Shown one piece after another: positions 6,462-30,263 of a stretch of DNA of 36,396 bases. Position 1 is the first letter of the stretch, and each line of letters starts with the position of its first letter. The notes below the pieces were generated by a model that was not told the DNA's origin, did not search any database, and was given only the letters and a program-made list of their open reading frames with translations. The stretch is from contig JAQGHB010000051.1 of the NCBI GenBank assembly GCA_028289045.1, positions 1 through 36,396 on the forward strand, read 5' to 3'. The stretch comes from Candidatus Saccharimonadota bacterium (GTDB lineage: Bacteria; Patescibacteriota; Saccharimonadia; Saccharimonadales; UBA4665). The position numbers and the translations under genes are program-made.

Positions 6462-7591
6462 TGATTGGCAGCAGCGACATCGCTGAAATCTTGAAAGGTT
6501 ACGATAAGGGCGCGATTCGGATTGCCAGCTTGGGCGGCCACAGTGCCCTCGACGTTTGCCGTGGCGCTAAAGCCGAGGGCTTTGAAACCGTGGTTGTAGC
6601 TCAAAAAGGCCGCGAGCAAACCTATCAGAAATATTATAAAACGCGCAAAGATGGCCGCGGCTGCGTGGATCATGTGATTGTCGTCGATAACTTCAAAGAT
6701 GTCTCGAAGCCTGAAATCCAACAACAATTGCGCGACCTGAATGTGGTATTTGTGCATAGTCGATACTTTTGGGTCTACTGCGACTTTGATGAAATAGAAA
6801 ATAATTTCAAAGTACCTATCTTCGGCACACGCCAGTTAGTTCGCAAGGAAGAACGTGACGAGGAAAAGAATCAATATTTCCTGCTACAGCAAGGCGGAGT
6901 GCCCATTCCAATCCAGTTTGATGATCCTAAAAAAATCGACCGCTTGGTAATTGTAAAGACCAACGAAGCTTCGCGAGGATATGAGCGAGCGTTTTTCCTG
7001 GTGAATAACTTCGCCGAGTACAAAGCCCGCGGTGCTGAAATGATAGCCGCCGGCACTATTACCGAAGCCTCACTGCGTAGCGCTGTGATCGAAGAGTTTA
7101 TTGTCGGTCCACAGCTCAACATGAATTACTTCTACTCTCCGCTCACGGGTGAGTTGGAATTACTGGGTACCGATACTCGTCGTCAAACCAACCTCGATGG
7201 ACTACTGCGACTGACTGCTCCCGAACAGACCGAGGTACTCAAACATGTTGAGCCCAAATATATAGAGAACGGACACCAAAGCGTCACGATCAAGGAATCA
7301 TTGCTGGAACAGGCTTTTGTAATCGGTGAAAAATTTGTTGCCTCCACCAAACAGCATTATGATCCTGGTATCATCGGTCCTTTTGCGCTGCAGGGAGCCT
7401 TCACGGCCGGTCCGCCTAAAGAAGAATTTAAAGTCTTCGATGTCAGTATGCGTATCCCCGGCAGCCCAGGCACTATGTTTACGCCGTATACAGGCTATTT
7501 GCACGGCGAAAGCATCAGTACCGGCAGACGGATTGCCCAAGAGATTAAACAGGCTATCGCCACCGATCAGCTAGCACGCGTACTTACTTAG
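6461..7591 (+). CDS. PurP-family ATP-grasp protein, divergent paralogue 2 (substrate uncertain)
   Basis: Same fold blocks as paralogue 1 ([55 protein letters not shown]). The glycine-rich nucleotide-loop region is replaced ([16 protein letters not shown]) and there are insertions. Its start overlaps the upstream stop (TAATG). Confidence 0.7.
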
Positions 7592-19459: not shown

Positions 19460-19642
19460 TTATCGGCACTGCAGATCAGCCTTGCGGGTGTGCACCTGGC
19501 TCTGGGCCTCTGCAGCAAGAGTTACCGCCGGTGCCACTCCCAGTGCGCCAGCAGCGCAGGCCAACACTGTAGCAGCCTGGCGTCTTAGGCTAGCCGTTTC
19601 GGGCATATGAATAGAGTGTGAGGAAGGGCTGACCTCTGACAT
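19460..19642 (-). CDS. possible small secreted peptide (Tat/Sec-like signal); may instead be non-coding leader of purN
   Basis: 60-aa ORF with SLRRQAATVLACAAGALGVAPAVTLAAEA followed by a 14-aa tail. No SD at either ATG. It lies inside the roughly 240-nt GC-rich region between a promoter-like element and purN. Confidence 0.25.
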   Translation of the reverse strand: MSEVSPSSHSIHMPETASLRRQAATVLACAAGALGVAPAVTLAAEAQSQVHTRKADLQCR

Positions 19643-19673
19643 AGAGGATTTAGTGTTGACTCATTTAATGAAA

Positions 19674-19702
19674 TTTTAATCTTTAGGATTAAAAATTACA
19701 AG
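19674..19702 (-). promoter_or_regulatory. sigma70-like promoter (TTGTAA-17-TAAAAT) upstream of the purN leader
   Basis: Minus-strand hexamers TTGTAA (19702-19697) and TAAAAT (19679-19674) with a 17-nt spacer, in the AT-rich gap after the dockerin gene. Confidence 0.4.
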
Positions 19703-19721: not shown

Positions 19722-21269
19722 CTACTGACCCCAGAAGCTGCAGAGGGTAGACAGATCGAAGATATCAACCGTGCCGTTGCCATCGAGGTCACCTTGAGCT
19801 CGTGTGGCACCAGATGTCTTGCCGTAGTTGCTGGCGAGAGCGCTGAGATCGAAGATATCAACCGTGCCATTACCATCAACATCACCGCTCTTAACAATCG
19901 TAGTAACAGCCAGGGCTGTTGATGACGCAGAGGTCTTGGCTGCAGCGTCGTAGGCTTGGATGGTGAAGGAGTACGTGGCTCCGGAAGTTAAGCCTGTTGC
20001 GGTGTAAGAGGTCGTGGCGCTGGTACCAACCTTGGTGCCATTGCGGAGTATATTGTAGCCGGTTACGCCGACGTTATCGGTGGAGGCGGTCCAGCTCAGC
20101 GTGGCAGTGGTCGCAGTTTTAGATGGAGATGTCAGACCAGTTGGAACTGAAGGAGCGACGGTGTCAGCCAGCGTGCTTACAGACAATGCCGCTGTTTGGG
20201 CTGAAGTCTTGGCTGCGGCATCGTAAGCTTGAACCGTGAAGGAGTAGGCAGTGCCTGGCGTGAGGCCGGTGCTGGTGTATGAGGTTGTGGCGCTGGTACC
20301 AACTTTTGTGCCATCACGGTAGATGTTGTAGCCGATCACGCCGACATTATCGGTGGAGGCGGTCCAACCCAATGTGATGCTATTTACCGTGCTGGCCGAC
20401 GAAGTTAATCCGGTTGGAATGCTGGGCGCTACTGTATCGGCAGCCGTGCTTACTGCGAGAGCTGTTGATGAAGCTGAAGTCTTGCCTGCGGCATCGTACG
20501 CTTGAATGGTATACGAATAACTGGTGCTCGGGGTTAACCCTGTATTCGTGTAGGAGGTCGTAGTAGTGGTCGCTAGCTGGGTGCCATTGCGCAGGATATT
20601 GTAGCCAGCCACGCCCACATTGTCGGTGGCAGCTGCCCAGCTCAAACTAATGCTTGTCGCTGTCGTGGCGCTTGATGCCAGACCGGTCGGAACACTGGGA
20701 GGCGTCAAATCGGCAATGGTGTAGGTAGCGCCAGTGGTGGCGCCAGCCGCTATGTCCTGCTGCGTGGTCGTGCTCACGAGTGCAGTGCCGGTACCAAACG
20801 CAACAGAGGTCGTGCCGGTGGTAAGAGCTTTAAATGTCACGACCGCAACTGTCTGTGAGCCGGTGCGCACTGCGGTGGCGCCGCGGGCTATCTGTAGCAG
20901 GCCTGCGCCGTTATCGGTAGTTTGGGCGGCGATATCAAAGGCGCTGGTGCCGGTAGGTGTGTCAGTGCTGACGTAGCTTAACTTCGTAGGATCATAGGTA
21001 AGGTTGGCCTGAACCGCGTTGACCGTGTCTGTAGTACTATTTTCCATAATGGTCACCGTAAAGTTATTGCCAAGGCTAATTGATGAGCTGGCCGGTGACA
21101 AGCTCATGGAGCCTGGTGTGGCAGCGTGTGTGAAAGCTAGAATGTAGATTCCGACGCCGGCAAAGATAACGGCGAACAAAGCAGCAGTAAGCTGGGGGCC
21201 TTTCAAGTTTTTCAATTTTTTGGTTACTGATTTCATAGTAATGCCCAGATTAAGGTTTCTGCTCCTCAT
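19722..21269 (-). CDS. secreted/anchored cohesin - 3x fibronectin-type-III - dockerin protein
   Basis: N-terminal hydrophobic signal/anchor. Cohesin-like module (TVTIMENS..VNAVQANLTYDPTKLSYV..VTFKAL). Three roughly 91-aa FN3 repeats. C-terminal duplicated Ca-binding dockerin segments GDVDGNGTVDIFDLSAL and GDLDGNGTVDIFDLSTL. Alternative ATG at 21236. Confidence 0.85.
   Translation of the reverse strand: MRSRNLNLGITMKSVTKKLKNLKGPQLTAALFAVIFAGVGIYILAFTHAATPGSMSLSPASSSISLGNNFTVTIMENSTTDTVNAVQANLTYDPTKLSYVSTDTPTGTSAFDIAAQTTDNGAGLLQIARGATAVRTGSQTVAVVTFKALTTGTTSVAFGTGTALVSTTTQQDIAAGATTGATYTIADLTPPSVPTGLASSATTATSISLSWAAATDNVGVAGYNILRNGTQLATTTTTSYTNTGLTPSTSYSYTIQAYDAAGKTSASSTALAVSTAADTVAPSIPTGLTSSASTVNSITLGWTASTDNVGVIGYNIYRDGTKVGTSATTSYTSTGLTPGTAYSFTVQAYDAAAKTSAQTAALSVSTLADTVAPSVPTGLTSPSKTATTATLSWTASTDNVGVTGYNILRNGTKVGTSATTSYTATGLTSGATYSFTIQAYDAAAKTSASSTALAVTTIVKSGDVDGNGTVDIFDLSALASNYGKTSGATRAQGDLDGNGTVDIFDLSTLCSFWGQ
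19896..20711 (-). repeat. three tandem ~273-bp coding repeats (FN3 modules)
   Basis: Units at about 20711-20439, 20438-20166 and 20165-19896. Each encodes D(L/T)(T/V)(P/A)PS.PTGL.S......(I/T)(S/T)L.W.A.TDNVGV.GYNI.R.GT......TTSYT.TGLT....YS(Y/F)T(I/V)QAYDAA.KTSA. The similarity is visible at DNA level. Confidence 0.85.
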
Positions 21270-22467
21270 TAGTCGGCTTGGTGATACTACCAGGTGTTTG
21301 GGGTTTTGGACTGTCGGGGTGGATTGAGATCGGTTTGCTCAGATCGCCAACTACCATGGTATCTGGTGTGCCTGAGCCGCCCATGCCGGATGGCGGGTTG
21401 AACTTATTCTTGCGAGGGATGATGAAGCCCGCGATACCGAGTCCGGCGATGACCAGGAGTATGAGACCGTAGATGAGCCAGCTTGGTGTGGCATGGGATG
21501 CAAGTTTGATATTGAACTCTTGCAAGTTCTGCTTGTCTGAAGTTGGTTGAACGACTTTAACTGACTGAGACTGTGTTTTGCCAGAGTATGTGACTTTCGC
21601 GTTATAGGTACCGACGGCCACGCCGATGAAGCCAGCCAAGCCGTTGGCATCAGTTTTAAGTGTTTTACCATCAAGGGTCACAGTAGCGCCCACCACAGCT
21701 TTGTCCTTGCTGTCATGCACTTTAATGGCGACAAAGTAGGTGCCTGGGGTCAAAATGCCTGGAGTTTCGCCGGTAGCGCCTGTGGTGTTAGGAGTAGTCG
21801 CGGGTGTTGGGGAACCTGATACACCAGTGGTTGATGGTTTTGTAGGCTTGGAAGTCGTCGAACCACCGGAAGCAGGCTTGGAGCTACTCGAGCCACCGCT
21901 AGATGCAGGTGGCGTCACGGGGGTCGGAGGTGTCACTGCCGCGGCTTTCAACACGAAGTTTGCTCCTGCAGGATCGTCATTCCAAAGATTTGAATGATCG
22001 ATGCTACTGGCGACGATGGCGGTCGCGCCAACAAAGCGCAGTGGCGTGCCTGATGATGTTCCGATGACTTTAAAGACAAGCGTACCAGCTGTTTGGCTGC
22101 CTGTAAGTTGACCATTGAGCTGAGCACGAATAATATTCGCTACGCCGCCGCTTGCATCGGTTGAAATATCGACACTGCTAAAGGCGGCTGCTGAAGCGTC
22201 AAGGCTGATAAATTGCAGGACGCTAGGATCGTAGCTGAGATCAACATGCACTGCGTTTACGGCTTGCGTGCCGCTATTCTCGGTAATCTTAGCGCTAATC
22301 GTGTCACCAACAGTGTATGTACCGCTGGAGGGAGTAATACTATAGATTGCATTGCCTGCGGCTTTGGCGCTATGAACAGCAAATCCCAGGACCGCTACAC
22401 CTATAACTACTGCTAAAAGCCCGCTATGGGCGAAGGTTTTTATTTTTGATTGGGGTTTTATGGTCAT
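21250..22467 (-). CDS. membrane-anchored cohesin-domain surface protein (scaffoldin-like anchor)
   Basis: Signal peptide ending HSAKA. Cohesin-like module (ISAKITENSGTQAVNAVHVDLSYDPSVLQF..LVFKVIG). Ser/Thr/Pro-rich linker. CarboxypepD_reg-like beta-sandwich (VGATVTLDGKTLKTDANGLAGF). C-terminal TM helix WLIYGLILLVIAGLGIAGFII plus a cytoplasmic tail. Confidence 0.8.
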   Translation of the reverse strand: MTIKPQSKIKTFAHSGLLAVVIGVAVLGFAVHSAKAAGNAIYSITPSSGTYTVGDTISAKITENSGTQAVNAVHVDLSYDPSVLQFISLDASAAAFSSVDISTDASGGVANIIRAQLNGQLTGSQTAGTLVFKVIGTSSGTPLRFVGATAIVASSIDHSNLWNDDPAGANFVLKAAAVTPPTPVTPPASSGGSSSSKPASGGSTTSKPTKPSTTGVSGSPTPATTPNTTGATGETPGILTPGTYFVAIKVHDSKDKAVVGATVTLDGKTLKTDANGLAGFIGVAVGTYNAKVTYSGKTQSQSVKVVQPTSDKQNLQEFNIKLASHATPSWLIYGLILLVIAGLGIAGFIIPRKNKFNPPSGMGGSGTPDTMVVGDLSKPISIHPDSPKPQTPGSITKPTNEEQKP

Positions 22468-22574: not shown

Positions 22575-23639
22575 TTACTGCCATCTTTTTCCGCAATATA
22601 ACACAAGTTCTGTTAAGTACGTTTTGAGCTGCACGGGCATGCCAACTTCTTGCAGCACGGTAACGGCGGCTGCGCAGTAGTCGCCTATCAGGGCTTCTAC
22701 TTTTGTATGGGCGCCATTTTTCTGCAAAATCTGTTGTACCGAGTTGAGCTGAACTCTAGTGGCTAATGGATTGCCGAGAATATCAAGGAGCTTTTGGCGA
22801 TCTGTTTGGCTGGAAAGGCGCAGACCGTAACTCATGAGTAGTGTGCGCTTGCCTTCCCGTATGTCGCTGAGCGTGGATTTGCCTAGGCGCTGCTCGTCGC
22901 CAAAAATGCCGAGTATGTCATCTCGCAACTGAAAAGCTGTGCCAATGTGGGCTCCAAATCGTTCTAGCTGATCGAGTTGTGGCTGGCTAGCTCCAGCCAG
23001 CAGCGCCCCGAGCTGTAGCGGCGTCGAAAAGCTATAGGCCGCGGTCTTGGTCTGACTGACGTGTAGGAGATGCGTATCGTCATCTGTTTCTTCCCAGGTA
23101 GTACCCAGTGGCAAAGCAGTATCGGCCAGCTCGCCCCCAACCACCGAAAAAGTGGTCTGATGCACCAAGGCTGCCGCGCGTAGCAGGTCAGTGGCCGGAA
23201 AGTCGCTGGCTAGCAGTACCTCATGCGAAAGATTATGACAAATATCGCCAGCGAGCAGCGCCCAGGCATTGGCGTAGTGATGCGCCTCGCTATCTTTTAT
23301 AGTTTTTCTAAGTTCCTCATAGTAATGACCGCTAATATTGGGGCCGCCCCAGCGCACCACGTCGCGGTCGATAATATCGTCGTGCACCAGAATAAAGGCA
23401 TGGAAAAGCTCTTGACTGGCAGCGACAGGGATAATAGCGTCGGACTTCTTGCCGCCGTAGGCTGTGTACGCTCGAATGACGAGTTCCGGACGCATACGTT
23501 TGCCGCCCCGCGCGATCAGTACGGCAATTTGCTCTAAGAGGTCGGCGTAGGCGGGGCCAATGGCCTGCGCCTGAGCTGATTTACTCGCGAGAAGTTGGGC
23601 TATGAACGCTTCTATTTGCTGCTTTGATGAGTCTCTCAT
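22575..23639 (-). CDS. short-chain trans-prenyl diphosphate synthase (FPP/GGPP synthase family)
   Basis: First Asp-rich motif LVHDDIID with no insertion and Phe at -5. Second motif FQLRDDILGIFGDEQRLGKSTLSDIREGKRT. Its ATG overlaps the upstream stop (ATGA at 23636-23639). Confidence 0.9.
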   Translation of the reverse strand: MRDSSKQQIEAFIAQLLASKSAQAQAIGPAYADLLEQIAVLIARGGKRMRPELVIRAYTAYGGKKSDAIIPVAASQELFHAFILVHDDIIDRDVVRWGGPNISGHYYEELRKTIKDSEAHHYANAWALLAGDICHNLSHEVLLASDFPATDLLRAAALVHQTTFSVVGGELADTALPLGTTWEETDDDTHLLHVSQTKTAAYSFSTPLQLGALLAGASQPQLDQLERFGAHIGTAFQLRDDILGIFGDEQRLGKSTLSDIREGKRTLLMSYGLRLSSQTDRQKLLDILGNPLATRVQLNSVQQILQKNGAHTKVEALIGDYCAAAVTVLQEVGMPVQLKTYLTELVLYCGKRWQ

Positions 23640-25495
23640 TTCTGATATTCCAATATAAATTTTTGAGTTTCCTGGCTACCGGCGACGGCCCGTTCGGCTG
23701 ACGCTTCCAATGGAGTGAGCCAATCTAAAAACAGCTTTGGGCTGGCTATGTCGGATTGAGTGAGCGCTTTACGGGCGGCGCTGCTATGACTCGTGATGAG
23801 CTCGGCGACAACATGTATGGTCGATCGCCAAAATATCTGCCGCAAAACAGGCAATTCGGTTTTGAGGTTGATCGATCCCGCAGCGCCGTGCTCTTTGAGT
23901 AGCAAGCAAGCCACCGCGCTCAAGTGGCCGCGCGCCAGATCTTCTTCCCAATCATGGGCGTCATCATTAAGCTGGCGCGCAATCAGGAAATGATGAAAAA
24001 ATTTCTGAAGTTGCGGCACTTTGGCTGCACTGTTTCCGGCCATCAGCACGCCGCAGGCCGCCAAGCTGTGCCCCCACGAGCGCTCTGCCAGCTGCCGGTA
24101 GTCTCCATATGTCGGCAAGGTGTAGTGTAGCCTGCCCTTTAGCGCGGTGGCCCGAGCTTGAGTAACTTCCCAGAGATTGGCAGTGTCCATGGCGACAAAA
24201 GCGTCATCAACCAGTGCGGTAAAACGTACGTTGTCAGGCAGCGCTTTGGCAAAATGTGTAACCGATTGGCGGAGCGCGTAGTGCGCCGCGCTCAGCAGTG
24301 CCAGCTGTCCTTCCTCATCCAAAAAGTCATCATAGATACTGTAGGCAATCCAGCCATTGAGGCTACCCAGGTTGAGCTGTTCTAACATTTTTTTGTCGGC
24401 TGTACGGTCGTAGGCTCGGGCTGTCAGTGTGGCCATATCGCTAATTTGGCCATCATGATCACGCGCAGCAATTTGCCTAACAATGTTTTGATACGCTGTA
24501 CCGAGTTCCGCGGGTAGCGATTTGCTGCTGGCAAGGGCCGCTCGTATGGTCGGGCTGGTCACGACGAGAGTTTTTTTCGGTGTTTCCTCGGAATGGATTT
24601 CAGAAAGCGCTTCCAGCGCAAACGCAGTCGTCAATGCCGCCGAACCGGCGTAATACTGCTGACCATCGAGATGTGGGTCAACGTACAGCGCTTCGGCTGG
24701 CCAGTGTCCGTCATGGCGCAGCGCCAGCAATCGTCTACGCGCGGAAGCAATTTTGGATGCTGGCAGCTGTATATTGCGGGCGGCGGTTATAAGAAGCGCC
24801 AGCTGCAAGCTAGTATGAGTTTTGGACGCGTCCAAGCTGTCGGCAACGAGTTTTTGGAGCGCATTCAGCTGGGGCCCCTTGTACCAGCGCGACAGAAAAT
24901 ATAACGAAGGAATACTGCTCACGTAGTACGGCGATCTCAGCGTATTTTTCTGGATGGCTTCATCCAAGAAGCTGTTTAGACCAGCCAGCTCAACGCCTTG
25001 CCGGCTAAAAAAAGCACCAATATTAGCGTTGACCACAACATCGATATCTTGCCACTGCGTGCCATCAGATTTCACTAGCCAGGTACGATACGGTCCGCCT
25101 GGTGCCGCCTCGGTGGCAATCAGTAATTTAGCGAATTGAGCCAGCGCGGCGGCATCAACTAGCGTGGAGTTGAAGCTCTGCAGCGCCAAAAGCGCGCAAC
25201 TAGTATCGTCGAGATCATCCGGATACGGGTGCTGCAGGGCCATATCGCTGCTAGTTTGCCAGTAGTTCCAGGATCCCTGCGGACTCTGTTGGCCTTGCAA
25301 AAAAGCGACTGCTGCGGCGCGAATAGAATCAGTACCCGCGACATTGCGCAGACACCATACAATCAGCGATGTAAAAAAGTTGGTAGGATGCTGCCGCGTT
25401 GGTTCAAACGGCATCATCGCAGTACTGGCCTGCCCCATAAAACTGCCGTCCGCGGCTTGCTGGTTCGCCAAGTATGCCACCCCCTCTGTCATCAT
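23636..25495 (-). CDS. fusion protein: N-terminal squalene-hopene-cyclase/prenyltransferase-type alpha/alpha barrel + C-terminal squalene/phytoene-synthase-like class I isoprenoid synthase domain
   Basis: N-terminal roughly 300 aa: QW-type motifs YLANQQAADGSF and FLQGQQSPQGSW, plus YPDDLDDTS (nt 25202-25216), which resembles the DxDDTA of class II cyclases. C-terminal roughly 290 aa: DDFLD (nt 24317-24331) and, 121 aa later, QLNDDAHDWEEDLARG (nt 23942-23968 covers NDDAHDWEE). The second aligns with the QLxNIxRDVxED..RG motif of CrtM/CrtB/SQS. Confidence 0.75.
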   Translation of the reverse strand: MMTEGVAYLANQQAADGSFMGQASTAMMPFEPTRQHPTNFFTSLIVWCLRNVAGTDSIRAAAVAFLQGQQSPQGSWNYWQTSSDMALQHPYPDDLDDTSCALLALQSFNSTLVDAAALAQFAKLLIATEAAPGGPYRTWLVKSDGTQWQDIDVVVNANIGAFFSRQGVELAGLNSFLDEAIQKNTLRSPYYVSSIPSLYFLSRWYKGPQLNALQKLVADSLDASKTHTSLQLALLITAARNIQLPASKIASARRRLLALRHDGHWPAEALYVDPHLDGQQYYAGSAALTTAFALEALSEIHSEETPKKTLVVTSPTIRAALASSKSLPAELGTAYQNIVRQIAARDHDGQISDMATLTARAYDRTADKKMLEQLNLGSLNGWIAYSIYDDFLDEEGQLALLSAAHYALRQSVTHFAKALPDNVRFTALVDDAFVAMDTANLWEVTQARATALKGRLHYTLPTYGDYRQLAERSWGHSLAACGVLMAGNSAAKVPQLQKFFHHFLIARQLNDDAHDWEEDLARGHLSAVACLLLKEHGAAGSINLKTELPVLRQIFWRSTIHVVAELITSHSSAARKALTQSDIASPKLFLDWLTPLEASAERAVAGSQETQKFILEYQK

Positions 25496-26898
25496 GAACT
25501 CGGCTTAGTCTGGCTGCGCAGTCTGACAGTAAAACAAGTGCCGCGCTTCGGCGAACTGGTGACAGTGATGCGGCCCATAAAATCAGCGGTGACAATCTGC
25601 TGTACCATCGCCAGACCAATGCCCATATTCTGCTGATTATGCTGCTTAGTGCTGTAGAACGGCTCGAAAATATGCTGCTTTTCATCTGCGCTGAGGCCGT
25701 GTCCCCAGTCGCAGACCTGCACCTGACAGGTTTTCTCGGTGCGCTTAATGGTGATGACTACGCGCCTTTCACCAAAAGGTGTCGGGTGGTCATCGTATGC
25801 TTCAATGCTATTAATAAGCAGGTTAGCGATTAGCTGATTGAACTTCACCGGATCGCCAAACAAGCGAATCTGAGCGTCGCTTATGATCTCAAACTTGACG
25901 CCACCCTCGCGGGCTCGGTGGCCGAGAATACGCGTCACTTGCTTTACTTCCTGGTGCAGGCTGAAATTAGTGAGGTTGCCCTGCCCTTTGAGCTGCTTGC
26001 GTGCAGCGTCAACGAAGCGTTCAATGTGCTGCAGACTTTGAACGGCTCGGCGCAGCAGAACTGGCCGCGGCTCACTGCTGTGTTGCTCTAAGTTCAGTGA
26101 TGCTACCGTCAAAGGATTTGACATTTCATGTAGTAAACCGGCACTGAGCCGCCCAAATTCTGCTAGGCGCTGTAATTCCATAACGCGGACGAGTTGCGCC
26201 TGCTCTAGCTCGCGAGTGCGCTCGGCGACTTTAACTTCCAGATTATCGCGCTCTAGTTCCAGCGCATGTTCGGAGGTGCGAGCCCGAGCTAGCGAGCGAG
26301 TGGTCTCACGATTGGCCAGCCAGGCCACCAGCCCGATTATCAAAAGTATAACGGTGTAGCCAATCGCCGAGGCCATTTCAAGTCTAAAACCTGCCCAGCT
26401 CAGGTCGGGATGAAGATAGCCGTACACTTGCGCGTAACTGATTGGCAAAAGTCCCACCGCGACAACGCAGCTGGCAATCAGCGCCGCCCGCGCGGTGAGC
26501 AAGACGCCAGCTATAACAATGGCGAGCGCCAGAACAAGTTGAGCTGAGGGTAATTCAAAACTCCATGTCAGAACGAGCTGTAGGGCTGCGACCAGTAAAA
26601 ATCCCACCAATACGTAGGCGACAACTTGGTGGTAGCCTTTGCGTGATAATTTCCATAAGCCAGCGATAACCACCGTAAAAACAAGCAGTATTGGCAACGC
26701 AGAACCTTTGCCGCCACCATCCAGACGATTACCTATATTAGAAAGATCAGCAATAACCGCGATGACCGTTAGTCCACAGAGCAAAATATTCAGAATAAGC
26801 TCTCGACGCTGCTGGTCTGGGGTCAAGCTGCGCGGCGCGAGAAATTTTTTGTACCAATTTGAGGTGTCAATTTGAAAGCGGAAACGGGACACAGGCAC
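25492..26898 (-). CDS. sensor histidine kinase with six N-terminal TM helices and no extracytoplasmic domain
   Basis: Six hydrophobic helices joined by short loops, then a coiled coil. H-box FGRLSAGLLHEMSNPL, N-box LLINSIEAY, G1 DWGHGL, G2 GIGLAMV. GTG start. Its stop overlaps the next ATG (ATGA at 25492-25495). Confidence 0.9.
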   Translation of the reverse strand: MPVSRFRFQIDTSNWYKKFLAPRSLTPDQQRRELILNILLCGLTVIAVIADLSNIGNRLDGGGKGSALPILLVFTVVIAGLWKLSRKGYHQVVAYVLVGFLLVAALQLVLTWSFELPSAQLVLALAIVIAGVLLTARAALIASCVVAVGLLPISYAQVYGYLHPDLSWAGFRLEMASAIGYTVILLIIGLVAWLANRETTRSLARARTSEHALELERDNLEVKVAERTRELEQAQLVRVMELQRLAEFGRLSAGLLHEMSNPLTVASLNLEQHSSEPRPVLLRRAVQSLQHIERFVDAARKQLKGQGNLTNFSLHQEVKQVTRILGHRAREGGVKFEIISDAQIRLFGDPVKFNQLIANLLINSIEAYDDHPTPFGERRVVITIKRTEKTCQVQVCDWGHGLSADEKQHIFEPFYSTKQHNQQNMGIGLAMVQQIVTADFMGRITVTSSPKRGTCFTVRLRSQTKPSS

Positions 26899-26927
26899 AA
26901 CCTATACAGTAGTAATATTGATGTTTT

Positions 26928-26957
26928 ATGAAGGGATCGGTTACCCGATCCCTTCAT
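26928..26957 (-). other. perfect 13-bp stem / 4-nt loop hairpin directly after the 38-aa ORF (attenuator or transcript-stabilising element, not a canonical terminator)
   Basis: ATGAAGGGATCGG-GTAA-CCGATCCCTTCAT on the minus strand, starting 2 nt after the sORF stop. It is followed by AAAACATC, not a U-tract. Confidence 0.6.
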
Positions 26958-26959
26958 CA

Positions 26960-27076
26960 CTAGGCTACGTCAGCCCATGGCGTAAATGTCTCCGCCATGG
27001 AACTCGCCAAGTCTGGCATGCTCGCCGCGTCGCGTGCCGACACGTCGGTGAGCACTGTTTGCAAGAGCTCGTTCAT
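26960..27076 (-). CDS. unannotated 38-aa acidic small ORF between response regulator and kinase (MNELLQTVLTDVSARDAASMPDLASSMAETFTPWADVA)
   Basis: The ATG lies 20 nt after the RR stop and is preceded by AAAGGGGG with a 6-nt spacer. The ORF is followed by the hairpin. It falls below the 60-aa cut-off of the ORF track. It has a single Trp five residues from the C-terminus, no Cys and no signal peptide. Confidence 0.5.
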   Translation of the reverse strand: MNELLQTVLTDVSARDAASMPDLASSMAETFTPWADVA

Positions 27077-27096
27077 TGCCTACCCCCTTTATATTA

Positions 27097-27786
27097 CTAT
27101 GTGCTACTACTTTTGAATGCATCAATTTTGTAGCCAAGTCCATGTACCGTTTTGATTAACGGTGTCCCAAATGGGCGGTCAATTTTGTCGCGCAGGTATT
27201 TGATGTGCACGTCAACGGTATTGGTCAATGAATCATCGGTATCGTCCCAGGCGTAGCTGCTGAGCGTGGCCCGCGTCACGACCATGCCGGTATTTTGCAT
27301 CAGGCATTCCAGGACGGCGAATTCTTTGCGCCGCAGCGGAATGTTTTGCCCTGCTCGCTGTACTAGGTGCTTAATGGTATCAAGCTCCAGATCGCCGACA
27401 ACCAGACGATGGCGACTTTTGGATGAGCTGCCTGGACGGCGCGTCAGCACCCGCAAGCGAGCTTTTAGCTCGTCCATACTGAAAGGCTTGGTGAGATAGT
27501 CGTTGGCTCCGCTGTCGAGGAGGGTTACCTTGTTCATAACTTCAGTGGCACCGCTTAAAACCAGGATAGGCGTGGTGAGCCCGCTGGTACGAACTCGCTC
27601 GCAGATTTTGAGGCCTGGCGAATCAGGAAGGTTTAAATCCAGAATAATAGCGTCGTATGGGTGCTCGGTGAGCTTTTGCATGGCTCGGGCGCTGGTACCG
27701 ACCGTATCCACCGTATATAGCGTCGCTAGGGCGCGGTACAGCACCAGAACTATGCCTGGATCATCTTCTACAATCAGTAAGCGCAT
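27097..27786 (-). CDS. OmpR/PhoB-family response regulator
   Basis: Receiver domain (LLIVEDD, ILDLNLPD, TKPF) plus a winged-helix output domain (LRRKEFAVLECL ... VHGLGYKI). Confidence 0.93.
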   Translation of the reverse strand: MRLLIVEDDPGIVLVLYRALATLYTVDTVGTSARAMQKLTEHPYDAIILDLNLPDSPGLKICERVRTSGLTTPILVLSGATEVMNKVTLLDSGANDYLTKPFSMDELKARLRVLTRRPGSSSKSRHRLVVGDLELDTIKHLVQRAGQNIPLRRKEFAVLECLMQNTGMVVTRATLSSYAWDDTDDSLTNTVDVHIKYLRDKIDRPFGTPLIKTVHGLGYKIDAFKSSST

Positions 27787-27804: not shown

Positions 27805-27865
27805 GAGTTATTATCACCCTCAATCATTAAAAAATTATTAACTTTTACCTAAATTAGATGAAAAG

Positions 27866-29669: not shown

Positions 29670-30263
29670 CTAGACTTTTTGGAAGCCAACGAACGCGAAC
29701 TGATACATCTGGCGATTTTGGAACCAGCTGCCTGAACATGTCTGGATAGTTAATAGCGGGGCACCCTGGTACTCAAATATTGAAGTATCTGTAGGGTTCG
29801 TAGCGTAAGCGCCGATATAACGGTAGGTGAAAACGTAGCCATTTGTAGCTTTTACCTGAACGAGACTGCCATCTTTTATCAAATGTAGCCGTGCGAAGAC
29901 CTCAGCGCGATAGTGGCCGTATATGAGCGTGTTGCCGCGAGCATTATTAGGTATGACGCTAGGCGTGGCGAACTGGGCTTTGTCAGACGTCAGTGTCCAA
30001 GTGCCCTCTGCGCGATTGTAGTAGCCATTAATAACAGGCAGATCAATCCCAAGGTCTGGAATGATAATTTCAGCTGGCTGACCGCTCACCGTTACCGGCG
30101 GAAGTTTACTGGCGGCGGATGACATCTGTTTGATGTTGCCGGGATTAATACTGCCGGCATCGGTAGTCTGATAATAAATGGTTGGCGCGATGCCGACGAT
30201 GCCAAGCACGACAAGCAGCAGGCTCAGTTTAAGTATTTTTCGTGGTGGGAGATGTAAATTCAT
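29670..30263 (-). CDS. sortase (cysteine transpeptidase)
   Basis: N-terminal membrane anchor. Catalytic His in LIYGHY, TLxTC-type Cys in LLTIQTCSG, and the conserved Arg in FQNRQMY. Confidence 0.9.
   Translation of the reverse strand: MNLHLPPRKILKLSLLLVVLGIVGIAPTIYYQTTDAGSINPGNIKQMSSAASKLPPVTVSGQPAEIIIPDLGIDLPVINGYYNRAEGTWTLTSDKAQFATPSVIPNNARGNTLIYGHYRAEVFARLHLIKDGSLVQVKATNGYVFTYRYIGAYATNPTDTSIFEYQGAPLLTIQTCSGSWFQNRQMYQFAFVGFQKV

Follow-up and report, generated by a model that had tools for sequence, protein, structure and literature searches.

To our knowledge, the trans-isoprenyl diphosphate synthase (trans-IDS) fold is the only class of long-chain tryptophan prenyltransferases. According to a 2026 review, the trans-IDS-like prenyltransferases characterised so far, among them Ord1, ComQ, PalQ and the P domain of ChrPC, have Trp as their acceptor (PMC13290415 sections 2.3-2.4), and a Gln shortly upstream of the second Asp-rich motif is common to such enzymes (PMC13290415). 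PalQ is encoded in a cluster with a histidine kinase (HK) and a precursor (PMC10853753 section 2.1). ChrPC and NctPC are presented, in the review's account of them, as prenyltransferase-cyclase fusions that transfer a C10-C20 group onto a Trp of a ribosomal peptide and then cyclise it; that account describes their products as natural products of the RiPP type (ribosomally synthesised peptides that are modified post-translationally), not as pheromones (PMC13290415). Our literature search found no ComX-like or terpene system of this kind described for Saccharibacteria, Patescibacteria or the candidate phyla radiation (CPR); one Saccharibacteria metagenome-assembled genome (MAG) is said to "encode a terpene" cluster, with nothing further (PMC7298704). 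Here we analyse a contig of 36,396 nt from a Candidatus Saccharimonadota bacterium (JAQGHB010000051.1, hereafter the window), in which a small open reading frame (sORF) for a 38-aa peptide lies between the genes of a response regulator (RR) and an HK and is followed by genes for a two-domain enzyme and a polyprenyl diphosphate synthase. The names carried by homologous proteins assign the organism to Candidatus Saccharimonadales, within Patescibacteria.

With moderate confidence, and on the basis of sequence comparison and structure models, we propose that these genes form a ComX-like signalling cassette, the peptide of which would be terpene-modified by the two-domain enzyme and sensed by the kinase. 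A modified peptide is favoured because one invariant Trp stands at a fixed distance from a conserved N-terminal helix with a short variable tail behind it, and because the peptide strictly co-occurs with an enzyme that has a fold of the Trp-prenyltransferase class, an arrangement with direct precedents. Rather more tentatively, Patescibacteria may carry a lineage-wide, self-contained autoinducer cassette of this kind, in which a peptide of 35-42 aa would be Trp-prenylated, cyclised and kinase-sensed, with feedback through a TTAAT-N6-TTAAT repeat. The module consists of the following features.

27822-27841, minus strand: candidate RR operator TTAATAATTTTTTAATGATT, a TTAAT direct repeat with 11-bp spacing, unique in the window
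27097-27786, minus strand: OmpR/PhoB-type RR, 229 aa (Pfam Response_reg and Trans_reg_C; NCBIfam OmpR-family models)
27083-27090, minus strand: Shine-Dalgarno site AAAGGGGG, 6 nt 5' of the sORF ATG
26960-27076, minus strand: sORF, 38 aa, MNELLQTVLTDVSARDAASMPDLASSMAETFTPWADVA, proposed precursor peptide
26928-26957, minus strand: perfect 13-bp stem-loop with GTAA loop (26957-26945 paired with 26940-26928), 2 nt past the sORF stop
25492-26898, minus strand: HK, 468 aa (Pfam HisKA and HATPase_c; hydropathy)
23636-25495, minus strand: two-domain enzyme, 619 aa (AlphaFold2 (AF2) model; profile and Foldseek matches)
22575-23639, minus strand: canonical short-chain polyprenyl diphosphate synthase, 354 aa (Pfam polyprenyl_synt, 1.5e-49)

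The sORF is a conserved gene

The RR gene ends with TAG at 27099-27097 and the sORF begins with ATG at 27076, leaving a gap of 20 nt that holds AAAGGGGG; the sORF stop TAG occupies 26962-26960. Shine-Dalgarno sites of the GAAAGGAGG type are found at the equivalent position in most Saccharimonadales loci. Further downstream the HK stop overlaps the enzyme start by 4 nt, as does the enzyme stop the synthase start. An earlier sequence-only reading of the window had called an ATG with a Shine-Dalgarno site 20 nt past the RR stop, an acidic 38-aa ORF without signal peptide or Cys and with one Trp near the C-terminus, a perfect 13-bp hairpin 2 nt behind its stop and lacking a U-tract, and had described the neighbouring RR as OmpR-type, the kinase as polytopic and the polyprenyl synthase as canonical. 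All of these descriptions were borne out by our coordinates, by Pfam and NCBIfam matches and by hydropathy: the peptide has a net charge of -5, no Cys, no signal peptide and a single Trp at residue 34 (TGG, 26977-26975).

The query for the protein search was an alignment with a 40-aa member as its first sequence, as a 38-aa peptide is too short for word-indexed search. With this profile, 34 called homologues were retrieved from 5.8 billion proteins, all labelled "hypothetical" and none with a Pfam domain, while an exhaustive hidden Markov model (HMM) search of 1.84 billion cluster representatives found 179 homologue clusters at 50% identity with E<=1e-3. Family statistics were taken from 172 sequences (150 listed HMM matches plus the called homologues), of which 169 are 32-58 aa long and were used for conservation. 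Among these small homologues R15 and W34 are 100% conserved, followed by M1 (98%), L9 (92%), P33 (91%), L4 (87%) and A24 (85%). Exactly one Trp is present in 163 of the 169, and in 129 it stands at residue 34. It is never the C-terminal residue; a tail of 1-8 variable residues follows, with A, S or G next to the Trp in 68%.

Across six Saccharimonadales orthologues dN/dS of the sORF ranges from 0.07 to 0.24, with nonsynonymous differences (pN) of 0.07-0.33 and synonymous sites that are saturated (pS 0.55-0.91), and codons 1-34 are free of indels in 12 loci. A chance ORF is excluded because of this protein-level conservation, the 179 clusters and the low dN/dS; the sORF is a genuine gene under purifying selection. 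The reading frame and the Trp are kept from close relatives to Parcubacteria, so that the coding ORF put forward in the sequence-only reading withstood comparison with orthologous loci. The isoprenylated signalling peptide suggested there likewise gains support from comparison and from structure models. Two antisense ORFs on the plus strand (26918-27133 and 26997-27116) were considered as the real gene and rejected: they are not conserved in L002, one of the orthologous loci (designated by L numbers), in which the sORF encodes MSELLQKVLTDTSARDSASMPALASSMAEKFLPWGDGET, and the codon-position pattern fits the minus frame.

The sORF peptide has no match to ComX among Pfam models at E<=0.01 or NCBIfam models at E<=1, and Pfam finds no NHLP leader in it. 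By these comparisons the peptide family is new, lacking a Pfam or NCBIfam model of its own and homology to ComX or PalX, which, together with the OmpR-type RR, upholds the earlier wording of "analogy, not homology" to the ComX system. Rfam gave no match in the sORF region at E<=1, nor in the window at gathering score. An AF2 model of the peptide from the family alignment (predicted local distance difference test (pLDDT) 74 overall) shows helices at residues 3-15 and 20-28, and a coil of lower confidence for the Trp-bearing residues 29-38. A helical part with a flexible Trp-bearing end is weakly suggestive of a docking segment followed by an acceptor region.

We also considered a separate promoter for the sORF. 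The 20-nt spacer behind the RR gene offers -10-like boxes (CATAGT/TAATAT) and no -35 box, and the 5' untranslated region (UTR) would be too short. Just 5' of the sORF Shine-Dalgarno site (window 27097-27110, minus strand) a stretch GTAGC(A/G)C...ATAGTAaTAT is conserved at the nucleotide level in the window, L002 and L009 despite a differing RR frame; it may act in cis, whether as a -10-like box, as a site of processing or as a partner in RNA pairing.

Gene order is conserved across Patescibacteria

The sORF is present in 11 of 11 loci that have the enzyme gene and enough upstream sequence. Likewise, the order sORF-HK-enzyme is kept in all 11 loci with enough sequence (window, L002, L006, L007, L009, L015, L020, L022, L024, L026, L028), which span Saccharimonadales to Parcubacteria. 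The RR gene lies upstream of the sORF except in L016, where no RR match was found, and in L028, where an opposite-strand gene stands between the two; the polyprenyl diphosphate synthase gene usually comes next after the enzyme gene. Genes bordering the module vary between loci.

Outside the source population, the 619-aa protein has its best relative, at 53% identity, in L002, where the genes follow the order RR-sORF-HK-enzyme-synthase. The RR-sORF-HK-enzyme module is also found in L006, L007/8, L009 and L015. Enzyme identity to the window is 45% in L020, 37% in L022 (a Parcubacteria MAG), 34% in L024 and 35% in L026, and about 30-35% in the most distant loci (L024, L026, L028), and the RR gene is 44-75% identical across orthologous loci. 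In L002, L022 and L024 the sORF had not been called before. A contig scan with the single 619-aa protein gave no match, and with the peptide alignment it returned only two already-known loci.

Several loci show peculiarities of their own. In L002 the stop usual for the RR frame (953-1696) is missing and the frame extends 30 nt into the sORF, which probably explains why the sORF is uncalled in that MAG. The RR of L024 is divided between two ORFs (2115-2306 and 2344-2781), and the enzyme gene of L001, a locus with 98% identity to the window, is frameshifted near codon 70. The kinase gene of L007 and L008 (~6615-6660) contains an in-frame TAA at about codon 13 (MNLLRFNTDNWY*KFIAPRS...) in two independent samples (JGI, Logan), and gene callers start at an internal Met, so that the membrane sensor is lost from the call; this could reflect a pseudogene, a recoding event or an alternative start. 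In L022 a gene (1043-2161) for HMG-CoA reductase, an enzyme of the mevalonate pathway, lies immediately upstream of the RR gene, and no polyprenyl synthase gene is adjacent; the reductase gene links the cassette to isoprenoid precursor supply by another route. L006 / L011 (DATHNF010000027.1) is labelled Verrucomicrobiia. Its cassette is of the Saccharimonadales type, with proteins 52-74% identical and neighbours resembling those of other Saccharimonadales loci, and the contig is probably mis-binned.

The 619-aa enzyme is predicted to combine a class II cyclase with a trans-IDS-like domain

Pfam detects almost nothing in the 619-aa protein. Its AF2 model, built from a 59-sequence alignment, has a mean pLDDT of 93.7 and resolves two domains joined by a disordered linker (residues 304-311).

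25495-24587, minus strand: class II terpene cyclase domain, residues 1-303 (DLDDT at 25216-25202)
24553-23639, minus strand: trans-IDS-like domain, residues 315-619 (DDFLD at 24331-24317; QLNDDAHD at 23974-23951)

The N-domain matches a bacterial drimenol synthase by profile (E 2.5e-18). The family motif YPDDLDDT aligns with FPDDLDTT of that enzyme, and the Asp altered in its D333N crystal form corresponds to the invariant D96. Foldseek relates the N-domain model to drimenol and drimenyl-diphosphate synthases and to squalene-hopene cyclase, and the C-domain model to solanesyl- (SPS), geranylgeranyl- (GGPPS) and farnesyl-diphosphate (FPPS) synthases as well as to the Trp farnesyltransferase Ord1. 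Profile, AF2 and Foldseek results thus place a prenyltransferase-like domain, whose transferase activity would follow from its fold, and a class II cyclase domain in one protein.

The trans-IDS-like C-domain is not detected by PF00348. In the 59-sequence alignment its first aspartate-rich motif (FARM, DDFLD) and a Q-x-x-DDxxD motif (QLNDDAHD) are invariant, and the region of the second aspartate-rich motif (SARM) aligns weakly with the synthase of the window itself (hhalign E 0.016), placing ARQLNDD over AFQLRDD. The consensus of the C-domain alignment has no conserved GKxxR-type basic isopentenyl diphosphate (IPP)-binding motif upstream of the first Asp-rich motif. Since this motif is missing and a separate canonical synthase is present, we infer that the C-domain does not elongate chains. 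From the models, this domain (within 25495-23636), and not the canonical synthase, is the likely analogue of ComQ, and we propose the 619-aa protein as a predicted Trp prenyltransferase and prenyl cyclase. A precomputed Pfam match to PF28380 exists on some homologues of the 619-aa protein (P0007, P0018, P0032 and others), and this entry may already describe the enzyme family.

The best NCBIfam matches of the separate synthase are geranylgeranyl (GGPP), farnesyl (FPP) and geranylfarnesyl (GFPP) diphosphate synthases; its FARM is DDIID with F at position -5. It probably supplies a C15-C20 donor.

Kinase sensor and a candidate operator of the response regulator

The kinase sensor (residues ~30-205) consists of 5-6 hydrophobic transmembrane (TM) segments, lying in residues 34-194 and joined by short loops, and the HisKA and HATPase_c domains come after it. 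Between orthologues the sensor shows no indels, and its identity is 28-59% vs 35-67% for the catalytic core. As predicted from sequence, such an all-membrane sensor fits a ligand that is sensed within the membrane. The RR output domain is a Trans_reg_C domain of the OmpR/PhoB type, not of the NarL/LuxR type.

The repeat TTAATAATTTTTTAATGATT begins 55 nt 5' of the RR ATG and is followed by -10-like boxes (GTGATAAT / TATAAT); it is the sole site in the window at <=3 mismatches, where none would be expected. An exact TTAAT-N6-TTAAT begins 41-65 nt 5' of the RR start in 10 of 14 loci (window 27822-27841, minus strand; L002 912; L006 5655; L007 5700; L012 810; L014 4212; L015 6239; L017 541; L019 6235; L020 3651); behind it come a -10 box of the GATAAT type and a 5' UTR that is very short. 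There are only three other matches in 180 kb on both strands. Two of these three are inverted (ATTAA-N6-ATTAA) and lie in the enzyme-synthase spacers of L006 (9939) and L007 (9895), where they precede a promoter-like site (A/C)TTGTGCT..N17..GATAAT (TTGTGC-N17-GATAAT). Similar sequences occur in L002 (5142-5343) and L004 (3347-3521). The pattern suggests a separate promoter under RR control for the donor synthase gene where it stands apart from the enzyme gene. The third copy, also inverted, lies in the window at 19665-19680, and its surroundings are described below.

An 11-bp direct repeat in place of the -35 box is typical of activators of the OmpR/PhoB family. The TTAAT repeat is probably the RR's own predicted operator, and because of its placement upstream of RR and synthase genes the module is probably autoregulated, which is compatible with signalling and equally with a peptide that acts unmodified.

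The hairpin behind the sORF

The stem-loop behind the sORF has a folding energy of -24.3 kcal/mol (z = -5.3 vs shuffles); for the 201-nt region z is -5.8. Behind the stem the window has AAAACAUCAA, without a U-tract, and a scan of the window for intrinsic terminators does not call the hairpin. The sequence-only reading had placed the hairpin next to the sORF as part of the same arrangement, and across orthologous loci this association is largely kept: strong stem-loops of unrelated sequence lie within about 25 nt past the sORF stop in 12 of 17 loci, and the remaining five have none. L002 carries a 16-bp perfect hairpin unrelated in sequence to that of the window, and in L007, L020 and L022 the corresponding stems have U-rich tails behind them. 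The hairpin is therefore a frequent yet dispensable companion of the sORF gene. Its position and the analogy with precursor genes of other peptide operons favour a role as partial terminator or as stabiliser of the 3' end.

A proposed terpene-modified signalling peptide and competing explanations

We infer the following course for the cassette. The polyprenyl synthase (22575-23639) would make a C15-C20 diphosphate, which the trans-IDS-like C-domain would ionise, alkylating Trp34, and the class II cyclase N-domain, with D96 of DLDDT as the acid, would then cyclise the attached chain. The helical N-terminal 33 residues may serve as a docking segment of fixed length, and the variable tail of 1-8 residues could give lineage specificity. 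After processing and export, the lipophilic product would be detected inside the membrane by the histidine kinase with its 5-6 TM segments. Binding of the OmpR-type RR to TTAAT-N6-TTAAT before the operon that encodes it would then complete a positive loop like that of comQXPA. By ending or protecting a share of the transcripts, the stem-loop could let the message for RR and precursor exceed that for kinase and enzyme.

A number of points weigh against this course. The sORF lies between RR and HK genes and not beside the enzyme gene, so that its linkage could reflect a role in two-component regulation alone. IDS-like folds also occur in plain terpene synthases, and bifunctional synthases that join class II and class I domains need no peptide. 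By Foldseek the C-domain matches Ord1 no more closely than it does ordinary synthases, and phmmer finds no significant sequence match of the C-domain among PDB sequences. The peptide is conserved at least as much as the RR and is not hypervariable like the ComX pherotypes. Finally, the module encodes no protease or exporter, although ComX loci likewise lack both.

Several of these points are accommodated by an unmodified small cytoplasmic regulator, that is, a helical mini-protein that binds kinase or RR as Sda does with KinA, with enzyme and synthase making a free cyclic terpenoid (a membrane lipid or small-molecule signal) under two-component control. We regard this as unlikely, while giving it real weight. 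Besides the position of the sORF, the two short helices predicted for the peptide, its lack of signal peptide and Cys and its RR-like level of conservation would suit such a regulator; a class II cyclase combined with an ionising alpha domain provides a complete terpene-synthase logic, usable on free prenyl diphosphates, and the pattern of RR boxes shows only operon self-regulation. An unmodified regulator leaves unexplained, however, why a Trp that is 100% conserved stands at a fixed distance from the N-terminus, with a Pro before it and a short hypervariable tail after it, and why none of the examined loci has the peptide without the cyclase/IDS-like enzyme. In the peptide model, moreover, the Trp falls into the least structured part, and the characterised non-elongating trans-IDS-like transferases all act on Trp (PMC13290415).

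A modified peptide need not be the ligand of the kinase. The product of the 619-aa enzyme could instead be a secreted bioactive lipopeptide, antimicrobial or host-acting, with the two-component system regulating its production or answering another cue. As Patescibacteria are for the most part episymbionts, molecules directed at a host are plausible for them, and the enzyme and peptide evidence is the same as for a signalling peptide. In the review's description, too, ChrPC and NctPC yield RiPP natural products (PMC13290415). This alternative appears quite improbable to us: the kinase is never separated from peptide and enzyme, its all-membrane sensor suits a lipophilic ligand, no immunity or export genes accompany the module, and in the ComQXPA and PalPXQ precedents peptides of this sort come together with a kinase (PMC10853753).

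Least of all, a short ORF with a Trp codon and a stable hairpin directly behind it might recall a cis-acting leader peptide that attenuates kinase/enzyme transcription, or a chance ORF in the spacer, but this is highly improbable, and a purely cis-acting leader as sole explanation is ruled out, given amino-acid conservation over the full length of the peptide where synonymous change is saturated (dN/dS 0.07-0.24) and 179 homologous clusters, one Trp codon instead of a run, a single stem with no alternative antiterminator pairing seen, five of 17 loci that keep the peptide and miss the hairpin, and antisense ORFs that are not conserved.

Surroundings of the module

Two genes for surface proteins lie directly downstream of the synthase gene (window 19722-22467, minus strand); one protein has a cohesin domain and a C-terminal membrane anchor, the other three fn3 repeats and a dockerin. 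Upstream of the module is a sortase gene (29670-30263, minus strand). These cohesin, dockerin and sortase neighbours are not conserved in other loci. The inverted repeat copy at 19665-19680 comes just behind the fn3/dockerin stop codon, and some 20 nt farther downstream on the minus strand begins an ORF of 60 (or 48) aa (19460-19642, ...MPETASLRRQAATVLACAAGALGVAPAVTLAAEAQSQVHTRKADLQCR) with a signal-peptide-like stretch, in a GC-rich spacer of 250 nt ahead of a purN-like gene. No tRNAs were found in the window.

Significance and comparison with known systems

Patescibacteria have minimal genomes with few recognised biosynthetic clusters. For communication among themselves or with hosts, a cassette of four to five genes that brings together precursor, kinase, regulator and terpene chemistry provides a concrete signalling hypothesis, and it defines a family of small proteins with at least 179 clusters, mostly missed by annotation pipelines or labelled "hypothetical". 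If the hypothesis is true, these ultra-small and mostly episymbiotic bacteria would have their first proposed native system of cell-cell signalling, with a new class of peptide-terpenoid pheromone, and Trp-prenylated, cyclised ribosomal peptides would extend to a new phylum, precursor type and enzyme architecture. Probably new is the cyclase-N/IDS-like-C enzyme architecture within a two-component cassette that has an OmpR-type regulator and is spread through Patescibacteria.

With ComQXPA the module shares a small precursor without signal peptide whose Trp lies a few residues from the C-terminus (W34 of 38 here), an enzyme with a predicted isoprenoid-synthase fold, a polytopic membrane kinase and an RR within one cassette, the absence of a dedicated protease or exporter, and probable autoregulation. 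It differs in showing no sequence homology, in its OmpR-type RR as opposed to the NarL-type ComA, and in the order RR-X-HK-enzyme in place of Q-X-P-A. Its putative transferase domain forms one protein with a class II terpene cyclase, and the donor synthase has a gene of its own; moreover, the peptide is shorter (35-42 aa) and much less polymorphic, and the hosts are Patescibacteria.

A histidine kinase, a Trp precursor and a trans-IDS-like Trp prenyltransferase, comparable to the parts proposed for the module, are clustered in PalPXQ of Paenibacillus alvei (PMC10853753). PalX, in contrast, has a long NHLP-type leader and a C-terminal Trp as acceptor, and PalQ does not tolerate a C-terminal extension (PMC10853753), whereas in the module the Trp is never terminal, the peptide has no NHLP domain and a cyclase domain is added to the enzyme.

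Closer in predicted chemistry are ChrPC and NctPC, which we compare by their description in the review (PMC13290415). There, too, a prenyltransferase domain (trans-IDS-like in ChrPC) and a class II terpene cyclase are united in one enzyme, and the acceptor is an internal Trp of a ribosomal peptide, which in our module would be encoded together with its maturase. In the module the cyclase domain is N-terminal and nearest to the drimenol-synthase type, whereas the NctPC cyclase is likened to MstE (PMC13290415); as far as that description goes, the module also differs in being built around a two-component system and in its new, very short precursor family.

For the cyclase half, the nearest described enzyme is AsDMS, a bacterial drimenol synthase (PDB 9mhs, 9m7d-f), of which the N-domain is a clear homologue with the catalytic Asp of DDLD(T/D)T aligned. 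In AsDMS the cyclase is fused to a HAD phosphatase and acts on free FPP; in the module its partner is IDS-like, and the proposed substrate would be bound to a peptide.

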